Source: a virus (Duplodnaviria > Heunggongvirae > Uroviricota > Caudoviricetes). From it: 44,570 nt of DNA. This document shows positions 2,804-37,295 of this stretch, one piece after another. The notes below the pieces were generated by a model. That model did no database searches and was not told where the DNA came from. It saw nothing but the letters and a program-made list of their open reading frames with translations. Made by a program: the position numbers and the translations under genes. The stretch lies in IMG/VR virus record IMGVR_UViG_2877973648_000004; one strand, given 5' to 3'. The stretch's first letter is position 1; each line of letters starts with the position of its first letter.

Positions 2804-3397
2804 TTATGAATAATTGAAAATGATGTTCAGATGGGATGGGGCAATTTTGTTGATTGAACACTCCAGTTGTTTATTGCCCCACGATGCGAGCGGATCTCCG
2901 CAGTAGGACGCGCCAGCAAGCGAATACTTGATCGTTGTTTGTGGCGCATTTATCCGCCAGGTAAATGGCCACTCGTCACCGTTAAGCGCATCACCGCATA
3001 CTGACATGCCACTCATAGCGGGCCGGAACTGTGTGATAGTGATGGTATAACCAAGAGCTGCAGCCACCCGGATGTAATAATCGCGGTTCAGGCCGCCGGT
3101 GCTGATTAACTTTGCCACCACGGCGCGCTGGCGATCGCTGACGCCACCGGATTCACCAATCGCACAATCATCTGGTAACCCCAGAGAGCTTTCCCATTCT
3201 GACAACATTACCGTCGCTGTAGGGGGAAAAGCACCAGTAATCAGGCTTTGCGCATCGTTGTCAGAACGCTGAAACGCGCTGCCCAGTGCCCGTAATACCG
3301 CAGCCTGTACCGTTTTTTGCGATCTGGGCCACGCCCTGCCCGTCGGCAGCAACGCGCCAAGCGCACCGGCATAATCATTTTTTGAAAAGAGGCTCAT
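2804..3397 (-). CDS. Baseplate/tail protein (Mu gp48-like)
   Basis: 197 aa, between baseplate J-like gene and fibre gene; start overlaps the upstream gene end. Confidence 0.5.
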   Translation of the reverse strand: MSLFSKNDYAGALGALLPTGRAWPRSQKTVQAAVLRALGSAFQRSDNDAQSLITGAFPPTATVMLSEWESSLGLPDDCAIGESGGVSDRQRAVVAKLISTGGLNRDYYIRVAAALGYTITITQFRPAMSGMSVCGDALNGDEWPFTWRINAPQTTIKYSLAGASYCGDPLASWGNKQLECSINKIAPSHLNIIFNYS

Positions 3398-18940: not shown

Positions 18941-21070
18941 TTATTTCGGCAGGAGTTGCGATATTCGCTTACGTTTGACCGGCGCTGGTTCTTCAATAAC
19001 CGCACCCGGCAGCTCGTAATTGATTTTTTCTTCCTGTCCAACTGGCGCTGGCAGGAACTTATCCGGATCGGCTTCGAGGTTGGCGGCCCGGACGTTGAGT
19101 TTTAACCCCATATGTTTGAGACCGCACAGCGCGGCATAGCTGTAAACGAGGCAGTCAAGCGCTTCGTTAGCTCGTCCTGGTATTGCTTCCCAGATACTGT
19201 ACCGCTGCCCGGAAATGACTTTGTAAACCAGTCGCTCCGCCAGCAGCTGATTGAAGTACCCGAGATCGCGATCGTCAGGAAAATGCATATAACCCGCAGC
19301 GGCGGCGCCAGGTTTGGGTGGCTCAAGATGCAGGCGACCGCGTATCACGTCTTTCGCTGAGTTAACCCCCAGAATGACAGGGCGGAAACTGGCTTTGCTT
19401 TTCGATGATGGTCGTTTGGTCGGCCAGACAGGATTGCGTTTACCTCCCTGTGCAGACTCCCCCTTAATTGCCCAGACACGACGGCCAAGACGCTCTTTGG
19501 CGAATTCGTATACCTTCTGCGTATGGTGGCCACCGGAGTCCATGCACGTTGCCATGATATTCAGGCCGCGCCCGTCACCACGTCGCCAGATCTGTTTCAG
19601 GTATGCATCCAGTCGCTTCCAGGGTTCTTCCGTCTCAAGGTCACCATAAATAACGTCATGCGCGACCGACCACGATTCTTCATCTCTCCCCCAGCCGGTG
19701 ATCGTAATTTCGAAGCGATCGTCCTGGGTATCAACTCCAGCTGTTAACAATGCCACCCCGTCCGGAACGACGGCCGGAAATATTTCCCGGCGCGCCAGCA
19801 GAACATCAACAGGGAGCTGTTTCCCATGATTAGGTCGGTGCGGAAGCCCCATCTGGGTATTCCACCACGCCTGTTCCTTATCCGGATCGCCCTTCGCATC
19901 GATATATTTTTTCGCAATATCCGACGGCTTATCTTTTTGCCAGGGGCTGAAAAGCTTGGATGCCTGGTACCCCGCGTGGTGGTTATCGACTGCCTCCTTT
20001 CCACAGGAGGGGCAGATTGCGCGATAGACCGCATGCCGTTCCGACTCTGACCATTGCCAGACCTTTTCAACGCTGCCCTCGTCTGCCGCCCGCCAGGCAA
20101 GGTCATAATCCATCAGCGGTGAGTGCCGCTCCCCGCAGCACTCAAATGGGCGCGTCTGATGCCATCGAATAGTGTGCAGAGCTCTGAGGCGCTGTCCTTC
20201 GGACCAGCCACTACCACAGCATTCGCAATAGAGCATCGCCGATTTAGTCAGGTGTTTATCTCCCTCTTTCGGCCACTGAACGTGTTTGAAAAAGTCGGGG
20301 AACTGGCGGTGGCCACAGTGCGGGCAAACCACAGATGCCCGGCGCTGATCGGAGTCGGCGTAGCTGTCAGCAATGCGGCTCTCATCCTCCACCGTCGGCG
20401 AACAGGCGCGTACAGACAGCCAGGTCAGGCCAAATGTCGCTGTACGCTCTTCGGCCAGCGCAATTGGATCGCCTTCGCGGGTTATCGGGTACTTGTCCAC
20501 TTCATCCGCCAGCAGGACACGAATCGGACGACGCGCAAGGTTATCAGGGCTACCAGCACCCGCCAGCGCCAGAAATCCGCCAGTGAATGCCTTGTAAAGA
20601 ATGGTTTCTTTCGAGCTTTTCTGTTTCGAATCACCGATGATTTTACGCAGTACCGGCGTCACCCTTACCAGCGGGCTAATACGCTCTTTCGAAAACTGTT
20701 CAGCGGCTTCTTCTTTCGGCTGCAGCAGCAGTATCGGACAAGGATCGAGGTGGGCAAAATAGCCAAAAAGGTTTTCCAGCAGTGCTGTCTTCATCAACTG
20801 GGTACAGCACATTACAGTGATGATATGAACCCCGGACTCCGTCGCGGCAAGCATCGGTCCGCGGGCAATTTCTACCGTCGATGTTTCCCAGTTTCCCGAA
20901 GTGCTCCCAGCCTCTTTTGCCAGCTTACGATAGTCATCTGCCCACTGCGGCACACTGATACGCGGCGGGGGTGTCCAGCCTTTGCGGACGCTTAATTCAA
21001 GACGCTCAATCTTCTGCCGGGTTAAACTCTGGCTCTCCGAGGACTGAGATGTGTTTGTGGACATGTTCAA
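18941..21070 (-). CDS. Terminase large subunit (lambda gpA-like)
   Basis: 709 aa; motifs VVCPHCGH and NEALDC resemble lambda A; true start may be slightly downstream since it overlaps the small subunit by about 60 nt. Confidence 0.85.
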   Translation of the reverse strand: MNMSTNTSQSSESQSLTRQKIERLELSVRKGWTPPPRISVPQWADDYRKLAKEAGSTSGNWETSTVEIARGPMLAATESGVHIITVMCCTQLMKTALLENLFGYFAHLDPCPILLLQPKEEAAEQFSKERISPLVRVTPVLRKIIGDSKQKSSKETILYKAFTGGFLALAGAGSPDNLARRPIRVLLADEVDKYPITREGDPIALAEERTATFGLTWLSVRACSPTVEDESRIADSYADSDQRRASVVCPHCGHRQFPDFFKHVQWPKEGDKHLTKSAMLYCECCGSGWSEGQRLRALHTIRWHQTRPFECCGERHSPLMDYDLAWRAADEGSVEKVWQWSESERHAVYRAICPSCGKEAVDNHHAGYQASKLFSPWQKDKPSDIAKKYIDAKGDPDKEQAWWNTQMGLPHRPNHGKQLPVDVLLARREIFPAVVPDGVALLTAGVDTQDDRFEITITGWGRDEESWSVAHDVIYGDLETEEPWKRLDAYLKQIWRRGDGRGLNIMATCMDSGGHHTQKVYEFAKERLGRRVWAIKGESAQGGKRNPVWPTKRPSSKSKASFRPVILGVNSAKDVIRGRLHLEPPKPGAAAAGYMHFPDDRDLGYFNQLLAERLVYKVISGQRYSIWEAIPGRANEALDCLVYSYAALCGLKHMGLKLNVRAANLEADPDKFLPAPVGQEEKINYELPGAVIEEPAPVKRKRISQLLPK

Positions 21071-21575
21071 TCAGCACCTCTGTCATCCTGTCCGCCGGTA
21101 CATCCAGATCAGCAGCCATTAGCGGCGCCACCCTGGACGGCCAGTTAAGCCAGGCATCACGCTGTTGGCGAAAGGCGTTGAATAAAACCTCCTCGGCTGC
21201 TGTCAGCTCAATAAGCTGGCCGCTGTCTTTTTCATACTGCAGCTTTGCCTGCAGGGCCATGTAATTCTCGCGGATACGTCCCGCTTCCTCTCTCGAAAGA
21301 TCTGCCCCTTCAGTGAGCATTATCTGGCGGACAGTTTTATTGATTTCATCACCGTCATCATCGTTATCGCTAACGACGGGAGTTTTCTTTTTCTTCGCGT
21401 TCGAGGCGCGCGGGTCTTTGCCATCGCGGTTTTTCTTCAATGCCGCATCGCTGGCCTCTACGTCAATCAGGTCTCCGTCCATCACAATGAAGCGCCCGGC
21501 TTTAATCCACCGACCAATTGTTTTGCGATCCACACCTGAATGTTGTGCGTACTGACTCTGGTTCATCGTGGTCAT
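21006..21575 (-). CDS. Terminase small subunit (Nu1-like)
   Basis: 189 aa with N-terminal HTH-like segment; immediately downstream of a repeat array. Confidence 0.7.
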   Translation of the reverse strand: MTTMNQSQYAQHSGVDRKTIGRWIKAGRFIVMDGDLIDVEASDAALKKNRDGKDPRASNAKKKKTPVVSDNDDDGDEINKTVRQIMLTEGADLSREEAGRIRENYMALQAKLQYEKDSGQLIELTAAEEVLFNAFRQQRDAWLNWPSRVAPLMAADLDVPADRMTEVLIEHVHKHISVLGEPEFNPAED

Positions 21576-21812: not shown

Positions 21813-22454
21813 CTATCTGGCCGAGCTGATCGCCTCAGCAATCGCCTGGTGCAGCGCTGAGGGTAACAATGCGTTGACCATGGTGTTTGCCCTGTCCATA
21901 TAGCCGAGCGTTGGTTTGACTGGAAGCGCGTCTCCAAACCGAATGAGCAATTTTGGTGCAGGTTGCTTAATCTTGTCTCTGCGCGTGCCGTTCGGAGAAC
22001 GTTTTGCCCGTTTCTTCCCTTTTTTGATTTTCGGCTTTTTTCTCTGCCACACGGCATTCACGCCACCAACGTCACCAATAAATACGTTTGGCTTTGCTTT
22101 GAGCTGAGAGAGCTTATTACGCGGCAGGTTGCCGTATTTATTAAGCTTTATGTCTTTCGGATTAAGCAAAGCACCACCATTAAGCTTGTGCGCTCCGCCG
22201 AACTCGAAGGGTTCAAGGTAGCCAGCAGCAGTATCACGAACAAACACCTTCGCACGAAGGCTGTTTTTCCTGGCACCAACTGACCCTACCGATTTAACTG
22301 TAAAAGGTGTTGGATTATCCAGATTCCGCTCAAATGCTGTTTTTTGGGCCGCTTCTATCTGGCGAACCACTTTAGTCATAGCCTGGGCAGTCGCAAACGG
22401 TATTTGCTTCTGCAGCTGTCTTAACTGACTGGAAAGGTCCTTAAGCGTTGCCAT
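21813..22454 (-). CDS. Hypothetical protein (Lys-rich C-terminal half)
   Basis: 213 aa with AGGAGG RBS; located between the lysis cassette and the cos/terminase region. Confidence 0.45.
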   Translation of the reverse strand: MATLKDLSSQLRQLQKQIPFATAQAMTKVVRQIEAAQKTAFERNLDNPTPFTVKSVGSVGARKNSLRAKVFVRDTAAGYLEPFEFGGAHKLNGGALLNPKDIKLNKYGNLPRNKLSQLKAKPNVFIGDVGGVNAVWQRKKPKIKKGKKRAKRSPNGTRRDKIKQPAPKLLIRFGDALPVKPTLGYMDRANTMVNALLPSALHQAIAEAISSAR

Positions 22455-22507
22455 ATCATTGACCTCCTAGTTACAGTAATTAAGATCAGTTTGCTCATAA
22501 AGTTGAC

Positions 22508-22530
22508 AATAAAAAACCGCCCGTAGGCGG
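22508..22530 (-). terminator. Rho-independent terminator
   Basis: Minus strand ccgcc-tacg-ggcgg followed by ttttttatt, immediately after the stop of the 134-aa gene. Confidence 0.55.
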
Positions 22531-22935
22531 TTAGTCGAACATTTTATCAAGTTGCTTAGCAAGAGCTCGGTTAAACAGCTCCTTCGAAACTGTCATCAGC
22601 GTGCCCATACTGGCATCTTTGAATCCGGTTTTTAATGTTGCCCAAACCTCTTTGTTACGGAGAGCATCCAAGAAGTCATGCCCCATCGCGGTCAATCGCA
22701 AGGGCATTACAGCCCAGTGAGTCATTCCGTCTAAAGACTGAATAGCACCAAAGCCGGGCTCCCCATCACTCCTGATAATCAGCCCTCTATCCTCAAGCAA
22801 ACGCATATGAAACACAAATGTGTCAGTTTCACAATTGAACCCTAAATCATTTAATCGAATAATATCGGTATCAGGTGAATCCGATGCCTCGAAAGCCTCG
22901 AGCAAACCTTTAAGGTATTCTTGATCTATTTGCAT
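22531..22935 (-). CDS. Hypothetical protein (AT-rich moron after lysis cassette)
   Basis: 134 aa, GGAGGGG RBS, visibly lower GC than flanking genes, own terminator. Confidence 0.45.
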   Translation of the reverse strand: MQIDQEYLKGLLEAFEASDSPDTDIIRLNDLGFNCETDTFVFHMRLLEDRGLIIRSDGEPGFGAIQSLDGMTHWAVMPLRLTAMGHDFLDALRNKEVWATLKTGFKDASMGTLMTVSKELFNRALAKQLDKMFD

Positions 22936-22967
22936 AACCCCTCCGTATGTAAAAGGTTAATTTAACA

Positions 22968-23438
22968 TCAATTTAAGCACTGCTCTTTGATGTATTCCTG
23001 CAAATATCCAACCTGTTTCGTCACTGTGACGATTCGCTCTCTGAGGGTGAAATAATCCCGTTCAGCGGAGTCAGTAAGTCGGGGGCCGGTAACATCGCCC
23101 AGGCCGCCGGTGCTGGTCGCTCCGTTCGCGGGACATCTGGCGTTGACGTGCAGCCCACACTTGCCAGTGCGAACACAACGCTGCAAATCATCAAGCTGCT
23201 TTTTAGCATCAGCTAAGTCCTTCGTGTATTTGGCATCCAGCACCGCTGCATCACGCTGGCGGATCTGCATGTCTTTGATGGTGGCGTTCGCCTGGTTAAG
23301 ATTCTTAATGGCTTTATCGCGCTGGTCTTTGTAGGTGATGGCGTTGCCGCGGTAGTGGTTCACGAGGAGCGCCAGCACGCCGATTAACGCCACCACAATC
23401 AGTTGCAGCCAGTAACGCCTTAGCAGCGCGGTAATCAC
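22968..23438 (-). CDS. Rz-like i-spanin
   Basis: 156 aa, N-terminal TM helix, coiled-coil rest; follows endolysin with overlapping stop/start. Confidence 0.65.
   Translation of the reverse strand: MITALLRRYWLQLIVVALIGVLALLVNHYRGNAITYKDQRDKAIKNLNQANATIKDMQIRQRDAAVLDAKYTKDLADAKKQLDDLQRCVRTGKCGLHVNARCPANGATSTGGLGDVTGPRLTDSAERDYFTLRERIVTVTKQVGYLQEYIKEQCLN
23021..23209 (-). CDS. Rz1-like o-spanin embedded in Rz in +1 frame
   Basis: 62 aa with lipoprotein-like signal ending ...ALASVGC and Pro-rich mature part, nested inside Rz. Confidence 0.55.
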   Translation of the reverse strand: MLKSSLMICSVVFALASVGCTSTPDVPRTERPAPAAWAMLPAPDLLTPLNGIISPSESESSQ

Positions 23439-23875
23439 GACAGGAACAGAGCGCGCTCCGCCTCACGCCGACGGGTCAGCCCGTTCAGGACTTTGCCACC
23501 AGCTTTATTCCAGCGCAGGAACTCATCGGCAGCGCCAGCGTAATCACCGGCGTTGAGTTTTCGCAGAAGGGTCGATGTCGACAGTGACCGGGCGCCGAGG
23601 TTGTAAGTGAACGACACCAGAGCATCGAATTGCCCCTGAGTCAGGTCAACTTTGACCAGGCGGGACACGTCGTTTTCATAGCTGACCAGCCCGGTCTTCA
23701 GCAGGCGTTCTGCAGTTTCCTGCTTAATCATCATCCCGGCTCGGATCGGTTTGCCGTCGACAGGCTTGGTCCAGCCATAGCCGATCGTCCACACTCCGAC
23801 GCTGTCCTGATACGCGGTGAGCTTGCAGCCTTCGAACTGCTTGATCAGGGCAATGCCTTTATCACTGATTTGCAT
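23435..23875 (-). CDS. Endolysin (lysozyme-like)
   Basis: 146 aa with FEGCKLTAYQD and GYGWT motifs typical of phage lysozymes; between holin and Rz. Confidence 0.75.
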   Translation of the reverse strand: MQISDKGIALIKQFEGCKLTAYQDSVGVWTIGYGWTKPVDGKPIRAGMMIKQETAERLLKTGLVSYENDVSRLVKVDLTQGQFDALVSFTYNLGARSLSTSTLLRKLNAGDYAGAADEFLRWNKAGGKVLNGLTRRREAERALFLS

Positions 23876-24179
23876 TCTTCATCCCCGTCAGTCGTTCCCA
23901 GAAGTACGTCAGTGCCACGGAGCCCATCGCCCCGCTGATACCAGACGTAACCAGAATCATGTAAAGGCTCAGCCCACTTTCAACGCTGATCAGTCCACCA
24001 ATGAGACCGGTAAAGCCGGACACTGCAATTTGTGCCAGCGCGTTGATCCAGCTCCAGGTGGCTTTGTTCTGCTTAACGTCAATAAGGTATCGGACCAAGC
24101 CGCCCCAGCATGACAGAGCAAGGACAATCAGCCATGACACTCCGGCAATGCTTTCTTTATCTTGCATACGTTTAGCCAT
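23862..24179 (-). CDS. Holin (possible dual-start MAKRM)
   Basis: About 105 aa from GGAGG-ATG; three hydrophobic helices; overlaps the endolysin start. Confidence 0.65.
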   Translation of the reverse strand: MAKRMQDKESIAGVSWLIVLALSCWGGLVRYLIDVKQNKATWSWINALAQIAVSGFTGLIGGLISVESGLSLYMILVTSGISGAMGSVALTYFWERLTGMKNANQ

Positions 24180-24400
24180 ATCACCTCCGAAAGAACGGGG
24201 TGCTGTTTGTAGTAAGGGATCAGGCCCTCGGGACGATTTAACAAGAAGGCATGTCGATGATGGTTCCCGTGAGCCTGAAATAGAAAGCCCCAGCAAATGC
24301 CTAGGCTAAATGAGGTGCCAGATCATATATCTGGCCGTATAACCTTGCGTTTGGTATTATTAAATCGCCAAAAGTAACCCTTCAAACACAAGGATTTAAA

Positions 24401-24931
24401 ATGACAAAAAGGAAGTACCGATTTTATCATGCGGACAGGGGTAACTTGCTGAACCCTGACATGACAATAATCCCTGTAAATGGCCTCTCTTCATTTGGAA
24501 AGCATTATCTCTCCCGGATAAATAGTGGAAATATGAGCGACGTGCTAGACGAAAATGTACAAAGAGAGATGCTGTATGAAAATGTGCGGATGGAAAATTT
24601 CCCATCCCGCCCAAGCCGATTCTCGTGCCTTTTTGGTGCGAACTCCATTCCTGAAGCGGAAAGCTTCGCCAGAAAGATAATCCCGCAACCGACCACCCCA
24701 ATTAATATTTATGAAGTTTTTACTGAAAATTTTGTGATTCTCGATATGAATTGGATGGATTACATAACAACAGATTTCGGTAGTAGGGTTGAATATGCCC
24801 GGCAGTACTGGTATTCATCAATTACCCAGCACGCCCCACTTACCGGCGATAGGATGATACCAACCCTGGAAGTCCTGCTGCCGCTTCCCGTGGAAGTAGG
24901 CAAGCAAGTCAGTACTGTCGCTTTTGATTAA
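24401..24931 (+). CDS. Hypothetical cargo protein (AT-rich, opposite strand to the late operon)
   Basis: 176 aa, AAGGA RBS 7 nt before ATG, lower GC; between the Q/terminator region and the lysis genes. Confidence 0.5.
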   Translation: MTKRKYRFYHADRGNLLNPDMTIIPVNGLSSFGKHYLSRINSGNMSDVLDENVQREMLYENVRMENFPSRPSRFSCLFGANSIPEAESFARKIIPQPTTPINIYEVFTENFVILDMNWMDYITTDFGSRVEYARQYWYSSITQHAPLTGDRMIPTLEVLLPLPVEVGKQVSTVAFD

Positions 24932-25100: not shown

Positions 25101-25451
25101 CTTTCCTCCAAATTAGAAGCTACTGATTCAGTTATTACTTACTCCAGATACGACAAAGCCCCACCATTTCTGGCAGGGCTAGATTATTAAGCTGTGTGTC
25201 GAAGTGACCACTCTTAACACGTTAAACTAAAAAATGCGGACCGCACTAGCATTTTTTTAATTATTTTTGCCTACTAACGACTGCATCCATCTCAAGGCGA
25301 ACATCCAGCATTGACAGACACCCCTCAATAAACCCTTCAGCAAGCAGCATTTCTATGCGTATCTGCTTTTCGCTTTTCTTCCGGTGCTTCGCCTTCTGCC
25401 GTTTTGAATACCGTAGAATATAATGCCCAACCAACAAATGATTGTCTGCGG

Positions 25452-25666: not shown

Positions 25667-26149
25667 TTATGAGGATTTTTTTGCAATTTTCCTCACATTT
25701 TCGCGATTGTTAAACGCATTTTGCAGCGGTTGGTACAAGCAGAACAGTGAGGCATTGATGATTTGCTTCACCTCTCTACGGATTGTCGAGATGCTTGGGT
25801 GTTTATACTGATTTCCGCCACGCGTCTTCATCAGGCGAGGCTTACTTACTGTATGCTGCCATGATGCAATTCGGATCTCGCTGGAGTTACAAACGTAGTA
25901 GGCGAAGACAACCCGCCAGGCATTTTCATCCACATTCTTCAGATAGTGACGAATGACAGCATCAATGAGCATCCCGTCATCATCACTACATACCGGTCGT
26001 GATGCTTGCTGGGGCTCAACGGTAGCCATGAATCTGGCAATCATGTTGATCATCGCTTTATCAATCTTGCCGGTCTGGCACCATGCGCCCCACAACTGGA
26101 GCCACTGGTCTACCCATTGATGCTGGTCGTTGGTTAATTCCAGTTTCAT
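25667..26149 (-). CDS. Late-gene antiterminator Q-like protein
   Basis: N-terminal 95 aa show LWGAWC...CSDDDGML...YYV pattern I recall from QuuD/P22 gp23-type Q proteins; located between nin genes and lysis genes. Confidence 0.55.
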   Translation of the reverse strand: MKLELTNDQHQWVDQWLQLWGAWCQTGKIDKAMINMIARFMATVEPQQASRPVCSDDDGMLIDAVIRHYLKNVDENAWRVVFAYYVCNSSEIRIASWQHTVSKPRLMKTRGGNQYKHPSISTIRREVKQIINASLFCLYQPLQNAFNNRENVRKIAKKSS

Positions 26150-28792: not shown

Positions 28793-29896
28793 TCAAACCA
28801 GTTGAAGTAGATTTCTTGGATTTGACAGTGGGCGGTTTACCGAGAATAACTCCCTAACCAACTCCTGGCTTAAACCAGTTTTCATGAGAATGCTCATCCA
28901 TGTTGCATCATCCAGCATTTCAATCGCCTCAGCTAACATACTCGGTTCTTCCGGGCGAATAAATTCATCTCCTGGTTCAACTTTCGTATATCCTTTAGAG
29001 TTCAAATGCATATAACCTGTTCTTGCCTGCTCCTGCGTCAGCAGGCCTAGAGTTGTTGCTCGGTAAATGCACATTTTAAGACTAATCTTCCACCGAAGCT
29101 TAAACTCAACTAGGGCGTTCCAATCGAACTGTCTTCCTCGTATACGGGGAAACTCTTTAATAAAGGACAATCGAGGAACTAGCAACGCGCTTGAAAAACG
29201 ATCCGCTTGCGATTCAGTCACTTTATCTCCTGTGGTTATACCTTCGTGCATAACCAAGTGCCCCAATTCGTGACCTAAATCTGATCGGAATCTGCATATA
29301 CTCTTTTTGACGTTATTTCGGATGATTACTGGCCTGTTGTTATGAACAGTAAAAGCATCTACGCGGTCATCCACTCCTGTCACATGAGCAACAATAACCC
29401 CCAAACTCTCAGCCAGTTTGACCATTGAGGATATAGGTCCCAGCCCTAAGTTCCATGCTCTTCTGCAGTCTTCCGCTACACGTTCAATATCATTTGGAGT
29501 CAGCAATTCAGCACCGGGGTGCTCAGGTATGAAAACATCAGGAAACTCGATTTCTCCCTCAACGGCAGAGATTATAATGTTAAGAATCTCCGCCCTTGCC
29601 AGAACACTATTGGTTAATGTTTGGGTTCTCGATTTTTTACTCCGAAAATGGCAAACATCGCTTTCTAAAGCATATTTTCGTTCAGTAAATAGGAAATCAG
29701 ATTTAATCATCAGCGCAGATGAGATTAATTCTAACAACTGTTCTGATGGTTTAAACCCTTTTTCCAATTTGCTAACGAATTGTTTTGTTTTACCAATTTT
29801 CTCCGCTAACTCTTCGCAGGAGAGCCCAACAGCCATTCTGGCTAATTTGAGCTTATCCCCACGATACTCAGCAAAGTCATTCACTTGATGTTCCAT
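28793..29896 (-). CDS. Fused HTH (XRE-type) / ImmA-IrrE-like zinc metallopeptidase
   Basis: N-terminal HTH-like LSCEELAEKIGKTKQFVSKLEKG; HEXXH-type motif HELGHLVMH in the C-terminal half; AT-rich. Confidence 0.6.
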   Translation of the reverse strand: MEHQVNDFAEYRGDKLKLARMAVGLSCEELAEKIGKTKQFVSKLEKGFKPSEQLLELISSALMIKSDFLFTERKYALESDVCHFRSKKSRTQTLTNSVLARAEILNIIISAVEGEIEFPDVFIPEHPGAELLTPNDIERVAEDCRRAWNLGLGPISSMVKLAESLGVIVAHVTGVDDRVDAFTVHNNRPVIIRNNVKKSICRFRSDLGHELGHLVMHEGITTGDKVTESQADRFSSALLVPRLSFIKEFPRIRGRQFDWNALVEFKLRWKISLKMCIYRATTLGLLTQEQARTGYMHLNSKGYTKVEPGDEFIRPEEPSMLAEAIEMLDDATWMSILMKTGLSQELVRELFSVNRPLSNPRNLLQLV

Positions 29897-30527
29897 TACT
29901 GCTCACATCCAAATCTTGATCTTTTTTACGGCGGCGAAGAGAGGCTTTGCCAATCTCAGCTTCATCCGGAAGAGTGTTGGTATCAAGAGACATAAGCGGC
30001 GCTGAAGCAGTAGATTGGTGTGAAACCATACTGATCTGGGCACCATATGCGTTAAACCCAACTAAAGCCACTTCCCAGCGAGGCAATGTTGATTCCAGCT
30101 CGCCATCTTCTTCATCGGATAAAAATGGTTCGGCGATGATCCGCCATGTAATATCTTGCTCGGCTTCAGTTTCACCGAACAATGAAAGTTGCTCATGCTC
30201 CACCCTATTTCGAAGAAGGCGATGCTTCTTCTTCGGGTTATTAATGCAATCTTTGGAGAACTGCAGCGGCACTTTATTTAACGCAACCACATAATCCAGT
30301 CCCTTCGAAACCATTTCCAGACCCGGCAGTGTCCCTTCACTTTGAATCAAATGATTTCTGACCCAATCATAAGCCCTTACACCTTCGGACCAGTTACTGT
30401 CCAGTGTGTGTTTGTGGTAGTACAATTGCTCGAGTACATTAGCAATTTCCGCTAACAACTGACGAACATTGCTTTCAGCAAGGTAAGGCTGAAATTCCCA
30501 ACAAGGTGCTAACTGGTTGTCGCTCAT
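29877..30527 (-). CDS. Hypothetical protein, upstream partner of the HTH/peptidase gene
   Basis: 216 aa, overlaps the downstream gene by about 20 nt (operon); no recognised motif. Confidence 0.45.
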   Translation of the reverse strand: MSDNQLAPCWEFQPYLAESNVRQLLAEIANVLEQLYYHKHTLDSNWSEGVRAYDWVRNHLIQSEGTLPGLEMVSKGLDYVVALNKVPLQFSKDCINNPKKKHRLLRNRVEHEQLSLFGETEAEQDITWRIIAEPFLSDEEDGELESTLPRWEVALVGFNAYGAQISMVSHQSTASAPLMSLDTNTLPDEAEIGKASLRRRKKDQDLDVSSNGTSSE

Positions 30528-35849: not shown

Positions 35850-35990
35850 ATCGCTTTAGGTTTGTCCTGAATTTTTAGTTCCCATGAGACAATGATGTCT
35901 TTACTGGGGGGTGATTCCGCCATTTATGTTAGATTGAAAAAAACTATCAATTTAATTAATATTTATCACTACTACACGGGATGTTTTGCA

Positions 35991-37295
35991 ATGACAGCTG
36001 AGATTGTTGTAATAAATAATACTGGAATCGCCCTTGCTGCTGACTCTGCAGTCACCACAGAGCATAATAGATTAGTAAAAATAAATAATAGTGCGGAAAA
36101 ACTATTCGAACTATCTAAACACCATCCCGTGGGGATCATGATTTATAATAATGCGACACTGGGTGGCGCACCGTGGGAACTTATAATTAAATCCTATAGA
36201 AAACAATTGGGGAAAACTAGTTTCCCTACCATTAAAGAATATGTTAATGACTTTGTAAAATTCATCAATGGTAACTCAGACCTTATAACAAATGAAATGA
36301 GAGAGGCTTGCGTTATAAACCTTGTTGTTGATAACCTCAAAGGTTTGATGAGATACATTAATGATAATAATGTAGTAAACTATTTAACAATGAACCCCGC
36401 CGTTGAACTCGACAATGTTATTTTTCAAAACATAGTTAAGCAAGCCTTTGATTTAGAGATAGGAATCTTAAGGAATAATCTCTTTTTCGAAGGGTTTGAT
36501 ACAGAAGAGTTTAATGATGCTTTAGCATATATACAAGATTTAATATCGCCATACATTTCATCAATTATTGTTCTTGATAACTGTGAAAATATACAGCAAG
36601 AGCTTATGGAAAAAGTCATATTATATTCCACTTGTTTAATTTTCAAAGTCCATGCTAGTCGTACATATTCAGGGATTGTTATAACAGGTTATGGAGAGGA
36701 AGAATATTACCCTTCCATTTGCACTCTTCATATCTACGGCATTTTTAAAAACAAATTGATGATCCATAATATTGATGAGAAATCCCATAATGAGGTAACC
36801 AATATGGGGTTTGTTATACCATTTGCTCAAGAAGATGAAGTAGTAACTTTCATTGATGGGTGCAACCCTAACATCATTAATTTTAACAGAACTCTTACAG
36901 AGGAAGTTTTTGATCGGCTTAATCATTATGTTTCTAGCAATATTTTCCCTGCAATGAACAATGGAGTACTAGCCAATCACTTCTCCAGTGAAATTGAGGA
37001 ACTCAAAAACGTACTTTTACAAGATCACGATACTAAACTTGAAAGCTATATTGTTAATAACCATACAAATAAAATGATATCGATGTTGCAATCACTTGGG
37101 AAGGCAGATCTTGCGTATATGGCCGAATCATTAGTGAACATCACTGCATTCAAAAGAAAAGTATCACATGATTATGAAACTGTCGGTGGGCCTGTTGATG
37201 TCGCTGTGATATCAAAAGTTGATGGATTTGTTTGGGTAAATCGTAAACACTACTTCCCTAAAGAGCTAAACTCTAACTACTTTAATCGTCAATAA
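35991..37295 (+). CDS. Large AT-rich protein with N-terminal proteasome-beta/HslV-like Ntn-hydrolase domain
   Basis: Track ORF 35892-37295; from internal Met the sequence is M-TAEIVVINNTGIALAADSAVT...EKLFEL...VGIMIYNNATLGG, matching proteasome-beta Thr1/Gly11/Asp17/Lys~33 spacing; very low GC. Confidence 0.5.
   Translation: MTAEIVVINNTGIALAADSAVTTEHNRLVKINNSAEKLFELSKHHPVGIMIYNNATLGGAPWELIIKSYRKQLGKTSFPTIKEYVNDFVKFINGNSDLITNEMREACVINLVVDNLKGLMRYINDNNVVNYLTMNPAVELDNVIFQNIVKQAFDLEIGILRNNLFFEGFDTEEFNDALAYIQDLISPYISSIIVLDNCENIQQELMEKVILYSTCLIFKVHASRTYSGIVITGYGEEEYYPSICTLHIYGIFKNKLMIHNIDEKSHNEVTNMGFVIPFAQEDEVVTFIDGCNPNIINFNRTLTEEVFDRLNHYVSSNIFPAMNNGVLANHFSSEIEELKNVLLQDHDTKLESYIVNNHTNKMISMLQSLGKADLAYMAESLVNITAFKRKVSHDYETVGGPVDVAVISKVDGFVWVNRKHYFPKELNSNYFNRQ

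Follow-up and report, generated by a model that had tools for sequence, protein, structure and literature searches.

A DUF2513 gene is swappable cargo between the spanin and packaging genes in the late operon of an Escherichia coli prophage

A lambdoid-type E. coli prophage carries, in its late operon, a 134-aa gene of the uncharacterised DUF2513 family as swappable accessory cargo behind the spanin genes and ahead of the packaging genes. The gene lies in a 44,570-nt Caudoviricetes sequence (IMG/VR record IMGVR_UViG_2877973648_000004), which was analysed over its whole length and is called the window here. The region is 100% identical to the chromosome of E. coli AREA_C483 (NZ_CP123310.1), where RefSeq labels the gene 'DUF2513 domain-containing protein' (WP_001165319.1). 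Early and lysis genes of this prophage are lambdoid, its terminase and portal genes resemble those of lambda, and its tail is contractile. So far, the gene counts as an ordinary, already annotated DUF gene in an accessory slot of a known type. For its role we favour, tentatively and with somewhat less than even confidence, a reading in which this exchangeable late-operon cargo encodes a small, acidic, non-enzymatic winged-helix binder that would act in conflict between phage and host or between phages.

The DUF2513 gene and its family

The coding sequence is the sole open reading frame of at least 40 aa over its span on either strand, and it follows directly after Rz/Rz1, as an earlier note on this DNA had stated (Table 1). 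A complete lysis cassette on the same strand precedes it, and the 213-aa gene, terS and terL follow. The GGAGG core of the ribosome-binding site is 4 nt from the ATG, in keeping with the strong site that the note had described. The lower GC content that it had suspected held up on calculation: the gene has 44.2% GC compared with 50.9% for the whole window and 54.1%, 57.6% and 55.4% for Rz, lysozyme and terL. The dip is moderate, at about 1.2 sd or the 12th percentile of 405-bp windows. GC3 is 45% in the DUF2513 gene compared with 58–69% in Rz, lysozyme and the two terminase genes terS and terL. It is a real gene, and strong purifying selection shows in the comparison with the Citrobacter orthologue (dN 0.066, dS about 2.1, dN/dS 0.03).

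Table 1. Features of the DUF2513 cassette and its flanks in the window, and copies of the 41-nt palindrome at other loci.
Feature	Coordinates	Strand	Remarks
terL	18941-21070	minus	after the 213-aa gene, with terS
terS	21006-21575	minus	after the 213-aa gene
213-aa gene	21813..22454	minus	downstream anchor of the slot; PHROG 1924; no Pfam match
Intrinsic terminator	22505..22532	minus	overlaps the TAA stop of the DUF2513 gene; 7-bp stem, 5 G-C pairs, loop TACG, U-tract
DUF2513 coding sequence	22531..22935	minus	134 aa; ATG start, TAA stop
Exchangeable cassette	22534..22967	minus	434 bp; 32-nt leader plus coding sequence; homology edges
Shine-Dalgarno GGAGGGG	22938..22944 (22944->22938)	minus	read from the sequence
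TGTTAAATT	22959..22967 (22967->22959)	minus	extended -10 type, without -35, weak; sole promoter-like feature in the 32-nt leader
Rz i-spanin	22968-23438	minus	upstream anchor of the slot; Pfam Phage_lysis, E 3.5e-38
Rz1	23021-23209	minus	ORF with lipobox, embedded in Rz
Lysozyme	23435-23875	minus	
LydA-type holin	23862-24296	minus	
Palindrome copy, locus L006	5925-5965		
Palindrome copy, locus L022 (phi80)	3300-3340		
Palindrome copies, locus L120	9011-9052 and 9363-9404		

The earlier note had recognised no motif in the protein, and here a profile search gave a different answer. The protein matched Pfam DUF2513 (PF10711) with 41.1 bits, above the gathering cutoff of 29.6 (E 2.5e-10), and residues 5–110 aligned to model positions 4–99 of 100. 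PHROG 585 (function unknown) matched over residues 1–131 with an E value of 3.4e-28. By these profile matches the protein is a member of the uncharacterised DUF2513 family, in agreement with the RefSeq annotation. DUF2513 was the sole Pfam family reported at E <= 0.1, with no MarR, PadR or envelope family among the results. The protein matched no model in PADLOC-DB v2 at E <= 0.1 and no NCBIfam model, and sequence and profile searches of the PDB returned nothing meaningful. The homology to a conserved morphogenesis protein that would have spoken against the note's view of the gene was not found. A literature search for DUF2513/PF10711 returned one irrelevant paper, and one for the related YjcQ family (PF09639) returned nothing on family function. 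The likeness to DUF2513/PHROG 585 and YjcQ lies in a full-length profile match, a size of about 130–140 aa and the common motif FH..L..D...PLRLT..GH.F, and the structural neighbours in BFVD are YjcQ-like. The protein shows no structural difference from the DUF2513 family; membership itself explains little.

An exchangeable cassette after the Rz gene

Matches to Enterobacter phages with the same Rz end at position 22971, approximately at the Rz stop codon. On the other side, the match to the prophage of E. coli MLI104K1 covers only 22455–22533, that is, the intergenic region and the terminator up to the DUF2513 stop. Because homology ends at these two stop codons, we delimited the variable cassette by them. 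In its place, MLI104K1 has a KilA-N gene and two small ORFs, and strain 2022CK-00450 has two small ORFs; both have the same 213-aa gene, terS and terL as the window. The comparison thus shows that the DUF2513 gene is dispensable, since sibling prophages hold other genes instead, and it bears out the earlier note's view of an accessory slot, which lies between lysis and packaging genes. The DUF2513 allele is present in 22/5426 complete E. coli genomes.

Promoter, terminator and upstream palindrome

The ATG of the DUF2513 gene follows the Rz stop at a distance of only 32 nt, and TGTTAAATT stands 23 nt 5' of this ATG. Crude consensus scans found no sigma-70-like site 5' of the gene in the window, nor 5' of its homologues in Klebsiella and E. 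coli. A relaxed scan returned only TGTTAAATT and a weak site inside Rz, at a frequency no higher than in shuffled sequences; a weak promoter could escape consensus scans of this kind. The scans thus gave no credible promoter of its own, and the gene is probably carried by the Q-dependent late transcript here. In this prophage it would ride the Q-antiterminated transcript together with the lysis genes.

Sigma-70-like matches also occur on the plus strand, where three of them (9 of 12 positions) overlap at 22430–22486. From the intergenic region and the start of the 213-aa gene they are directed rightwards and read into the DUF2513 cassette in antisense. They may reflect AT-richness alone.

The stem of the intrinsic terminator, AACCGCC-TACG-GGCGGTT at 22532->22515, is followed by TTTTTTATT, and its RNA has a predicted folding energy of −13.9 kcal/mol (z = −2.96 relative to shuffles). 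In an alignment of four prophages, the terminator sequence ACCGCCT(A/C)CGGGCGGTTTTTT is kept in MLI104K1, in 2022CK-00450 and in one unrelated prophage. Because it is nearly base-for-base common to prophages with other cargo, the alignment identifies the terminator as a boundary feature of the slot. The earlier note was right that an intrinsic terminator closes the gene, with which it even overlaps, but not that this terminator is the gene's own. It would stop only polymerase that is not antiterminated.

Upstream of many DUF2513 homologues we found a conserved 41-nt imperfect palindrome, GGCATTACAGCAGGCATTCACTGAGTGCCTGTGATAATGCT, and the element upstream of homologues in other phages contains TGTGATAAT. 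The palindrome core was detected in at least 120 contigs of enterobacterial phages, as well as in phi80, a phage without DUF2513; the window contains no copy. Right after the palindrome the sequence diverges into at least 57 unrelated first-ORF families. Among them are HNH, which stands for an empty slot, DUF551, pol III theta and a BamE-like domain and, as judged by N-termini, putative lipoproteins and membrane proteins, a ParB_N protein, Lar and DUF2513. The palindrome RNA has a predicted folding energy of −24.7 kcal/mol (z = −5.4), and its variants preserve the pairing by compensatory and wobble substitutions. The core is flipped in some copies, and at some loci two copies flank a small ORF. 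No Rfam family matches the palindrome, and none matches at the cassette in the window or in related loci. The palindrome could be a promoter with an operator, an RNA element or a recombination anchor; the divergence behind it shows that it is the upstream edge of a general, hypervariable cargo slot. We considered the palindrome together with the extended −10 as an autoregulated promoter of the cassette and rejected this, given the unrelated cargo families, the phi80 copy and the missing copy in the window. The palindrome therefore provides no argument for autoregulation by DUF2513.

These results bear on the suggestion that the gene is a classic lysogenic-conversion moron, transcribed from its own promoter in the lysogen, ended by the terminator and giving the host a phenotype such as phage exclusion. 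We regard this as unlikely. The gene is like the lambda bor and lom morons (Hendrix-Juhala definition) in being an extra gene of the late region with deviating GC content, a terminator and presence/absence polymorphism. It differs from them in having no detectable promoter of its own, so that it shows only half of the promoter-and-terminator pair that characterises a classic moron. The extended −10-like TGTTAAATT upstream of the ATG has no −35 in a leader that leaves little room before Rz, promoter matches are not above chance, and the conserved TGTGATAAT element, which might supply a promoter before homologues in other phages, is missing from the window. The accessory slot and lower GC fit a moron, as do the terminator, the presence in the same prophage of RosmerTA, another AT-rich defence cargo, and the distant homologues outside phages; but the terminator is common to other cargo. 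Unlike bor and lom, the window gene abuts Rz and is co-oriented with it, and co-orientation with the late genes is the rule at related loci (see below). The N-terminus, MQIDQEYLKGLLEAFEASDS, is acidic, and the sequence has no signal peptide, hydrophobic segment, lipobox or transmembrane segment, so the product is predicted to be cytoplasmic and not an envelope protein of the Bor, Lom or Sie type. Lambda has bor-type morons in this slot, as the note had pointed out; a serum-resistance lipoprotein of the Bor type is excluded here on the absence of a signal peptide and lipobox. The orientation also differs from that of bor.

Predicted fold and charge of the protein

The AlphaFold model of the protein (39 homologues) has a pLDDT of 91.4 and a pTM of 0.83. 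In it, three helices are followed by a long wing of four strands, and three more helices form the C-terminal part. The predicted fold is therefore a MarR/PadR-like winged helix-turn-helix with three additional C-terminal helices. MarR, PadR and HxlR regulators dominate the fold matches; identity to the MarR/PadR regulators is 10–20% and only the core aligns. N-terminal helix-turn-helix domains of abortive-infection and toxin-antitoxin proteins often autoregulate.

The fold and this precedent would suit a MarR/PadR-like DNA-binding transcription factor for phage late genes or host genes, a role that we consider quite unlikely. The protein has a pI of 4.77 and a net charge of −8, and the winged-helix part has a pI of 4.3 and a net charge of −9 (family median pI 5.2). 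The stretch just before the recognition helix is likewise acidic, and its residues are variable. Because of this overall acidity and these residues, the protein appears to be a poor candidate for a classical operator-binding repressor; the surface charge is judged from the sequence, and acidity is not a strict bar to DNA binding. The window protein differs from the MarR/PadR regulators in its predicted acidic surface and in that the analysis found no cognate operator; the palindrome that precedes homologues stands before many unrelated cargo families as well and does not occur in the window. No conserved target gene adjoins.

Position of the gene in other phages and genomes

For the best 80 related loci in IMG/VR, we inspected 3.5 kb on either side of the gene, looking for recognisable lysis genes upstream and packaging genes downstream. 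Seventy-three of these 80 (about 91%) hold the gene in the lysis-to-packaging slot: 60 show both sets of genes in this order and on the gene's own strand, and a further 13 fit the arrangement. All 73 slot-resident loci are co-oriented with the late genes, and an integrase adjoins the gene in only 2 of the 80. The homologues from Klebsiella (71% identity) and E. coli (60%) come after quite different lysis cassettes and before HNH, Terminase_4 and TerL, and each is then followed by a terminator of unrelated sequence. Klebsiella phage ST846-OXA48phi9.2 has a homologue at the equivalent position. In total, the DUF2513 gene is found with at least three types of terminase that are unrelated to one another and with several lysis cassettes. 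Exceptions to the slot are a homologue in phage Chlobot that adjoins xis and int, and another that adjoins ImmA/ImmR.

An exhaustive profile search identified 365 relatives of the DUF2513 protein, nearly all of them standalone proteins of about 135 aa, from many phyla. No conserved neighbour or partner gene was found in 58 genomes from many phyla. Many distant standalone homologues lie among housekeeping genes, surroundings that fit a cellular role as well. A lysis or DNA-packaging helper, working as a functional part of the late operon, would account for the common position and orientation of the best 80 viral loci but is improbable, given near-identical prophages without the gene, the rarity of the allele among E. 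coli genomes, the variety of terminases and lysis cassettes, and homologues beside an integrase, in a defence island and at non-phage chromosomal sites.

Effector fusions and defence neighbours

Some relatives are fusions, in which the entire DUF2513 module of ∼130 aa is N-terminal to effector domains. Fusions to the TIR-like domain PF10137 form at least seven clusters from independent metagenomes, and one of these fusions (P0126) is 46% identical to the window protein over residues 1–131. Other fusions have TIR_2 or AbiJ_NTD4 with DUF4062. All these effector fusions come from environmental metagenomes, not from Enterobacterales. PF10137 is joined to thousands of different N-termini, as expected if these are swappable sensor domains, and a 2026 preprint presents DUF4062 as an NADase with an immune function. 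The N-terminal 130 residues of single-chain abortive-infection proteins with PF10137, TIR_2 or DUF4062 are homologous to the full-length window protein, which itself is without any effector domain.

In a handful of about 55 loci, the homologue adjoins restriction-modification, Shosta or PD-Lambda-3 genes. At one locus (L023, 1057–5402), a 39%-identical homologue ends a tight same-strand row of CBASS type, in the order SAVED effector, CD-NTase (CBASS), 69-aa ORF, 328-aa ORF and DUF2513, and a SocA/Panacea-type gene adjoins.

In phi80, the equivalent slot contains the defence gene taiEcA, which is on the opposite strand and expressed in the lysogen, and the counter-defence gene atiEcA, which is co-oriented with the Q-dependent late operon (PMC11364771). 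The DUF2513 gene has in common with this pair the slot upstream of the packaging module and, with AtiEcA, the small size and late-operon orientation; unlike the Tai/Ati pair, the 434-bp cassette in the window holds one ORF and no divergent partner. Membership in the Tai/Ati system was rejected, as tblastn against the phi80 slot gave no match to any slot gene.

Proposed role

If the protein is a small winged-helix binder with a role in conflict, the reading that we favour, it would bind a macromolecule, which may be a protein, of phage or host, or a nucleic acid of an unusual kind, and would not work as a classical operator-binding repressor. The effector fusions, the defence-type surroundings of some homologues and the phi80 pair in the equivalent slot speak for a role in conflict. 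One option is counter-defence: while the prophage itself goes through lytic growth, the protein would mask or sequester a signal of infection. A second option is that it sequesters a component of a competing phage, which would be defence. Late-expressed counter-defence or self-protection is slightly more likely than defence expressed in the lysogen, because the gene has late-operon orientation and apparently lacks its own promoter. A defence role retains some weight because there are non-phage homologues and because the prophage has other AT-rich defence cargo.

A more specific version of this proposal, suggested by the fusions and in our view unlikely, is that DUF2513 is an infection-sensing or trigger-binding module that bacteria fuse to NADase effectors (TIR-like, DUF4062) to build abortive-infection proteins and that temperate enterobacterial phages carry in the late operon as an effector-less decoy. 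Such a decoy would mask the trigger, or poison such sensors, while phage structural proteins are made. If true, this would define a new family of non-enzymatic counter-defence proteins. The module that the gene product has in common with the presumed sensing end of NADase immune proteins offers a handle on what those proteins sense. The family is widespread and its position in enterobacterial prophages is very constant. The small soluble protein is easy to test and is a candidate for the short list of prophage late-operon cargo with a possible protective role for phage or host in conflict.

Other genes of the prophage

Two overlapping AT-rich genes on the minus strand (28793–30527, in a region of about 42–45% GC) match the RosmerTA defence system, with RmrA of 367 aa (E 1.6e-106) and RmrT of 216 aa (E 2.4e-26). 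RefSeq labels them only as 'helix-turn-helix domain-containing protein' and 'hypothetical protein'. A 467-aa ORF on the plus strand (35892–37295) falls where the window is richest in AT (33.5% GC in 36001–37000) and adjoins the repressor-type helix-turn-helix gene. This ORF has no PADLOC or PDB sequence match, and its position is typical of prophage-borne defence genes.

The 213-aa gene downstream of the cassette belongs to PHROG 1924 ('minor tail protein') and has no PADLOC or NCBIfam match, as with Pfam. Its presence varies: it is absent from about a dozen E. coli prophages that have the same terS, and a distant copy is found in Yersinia phage vB_YpM_39. On the other side of the lysis genes, the opposite strand encodes a DUF2441/PHROG 5663 protein of 176 aa (24401–24931, plus strand, 44% GC), placed between the holin and the region of the Q antiterminator. 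The gene resembles a moron in reverse orientation, and its copy in the MLI104K1 prophage is 99% identical. In the RefSeq annotation, a truncated pseudogene of the Q antiterminator stands beside an intact Q gene (25261–25446 and 25667–26149, minus strand). Between Q and the lysis genes there is a strong terminator-like hairpin at 25481->25465, which may be tR'.
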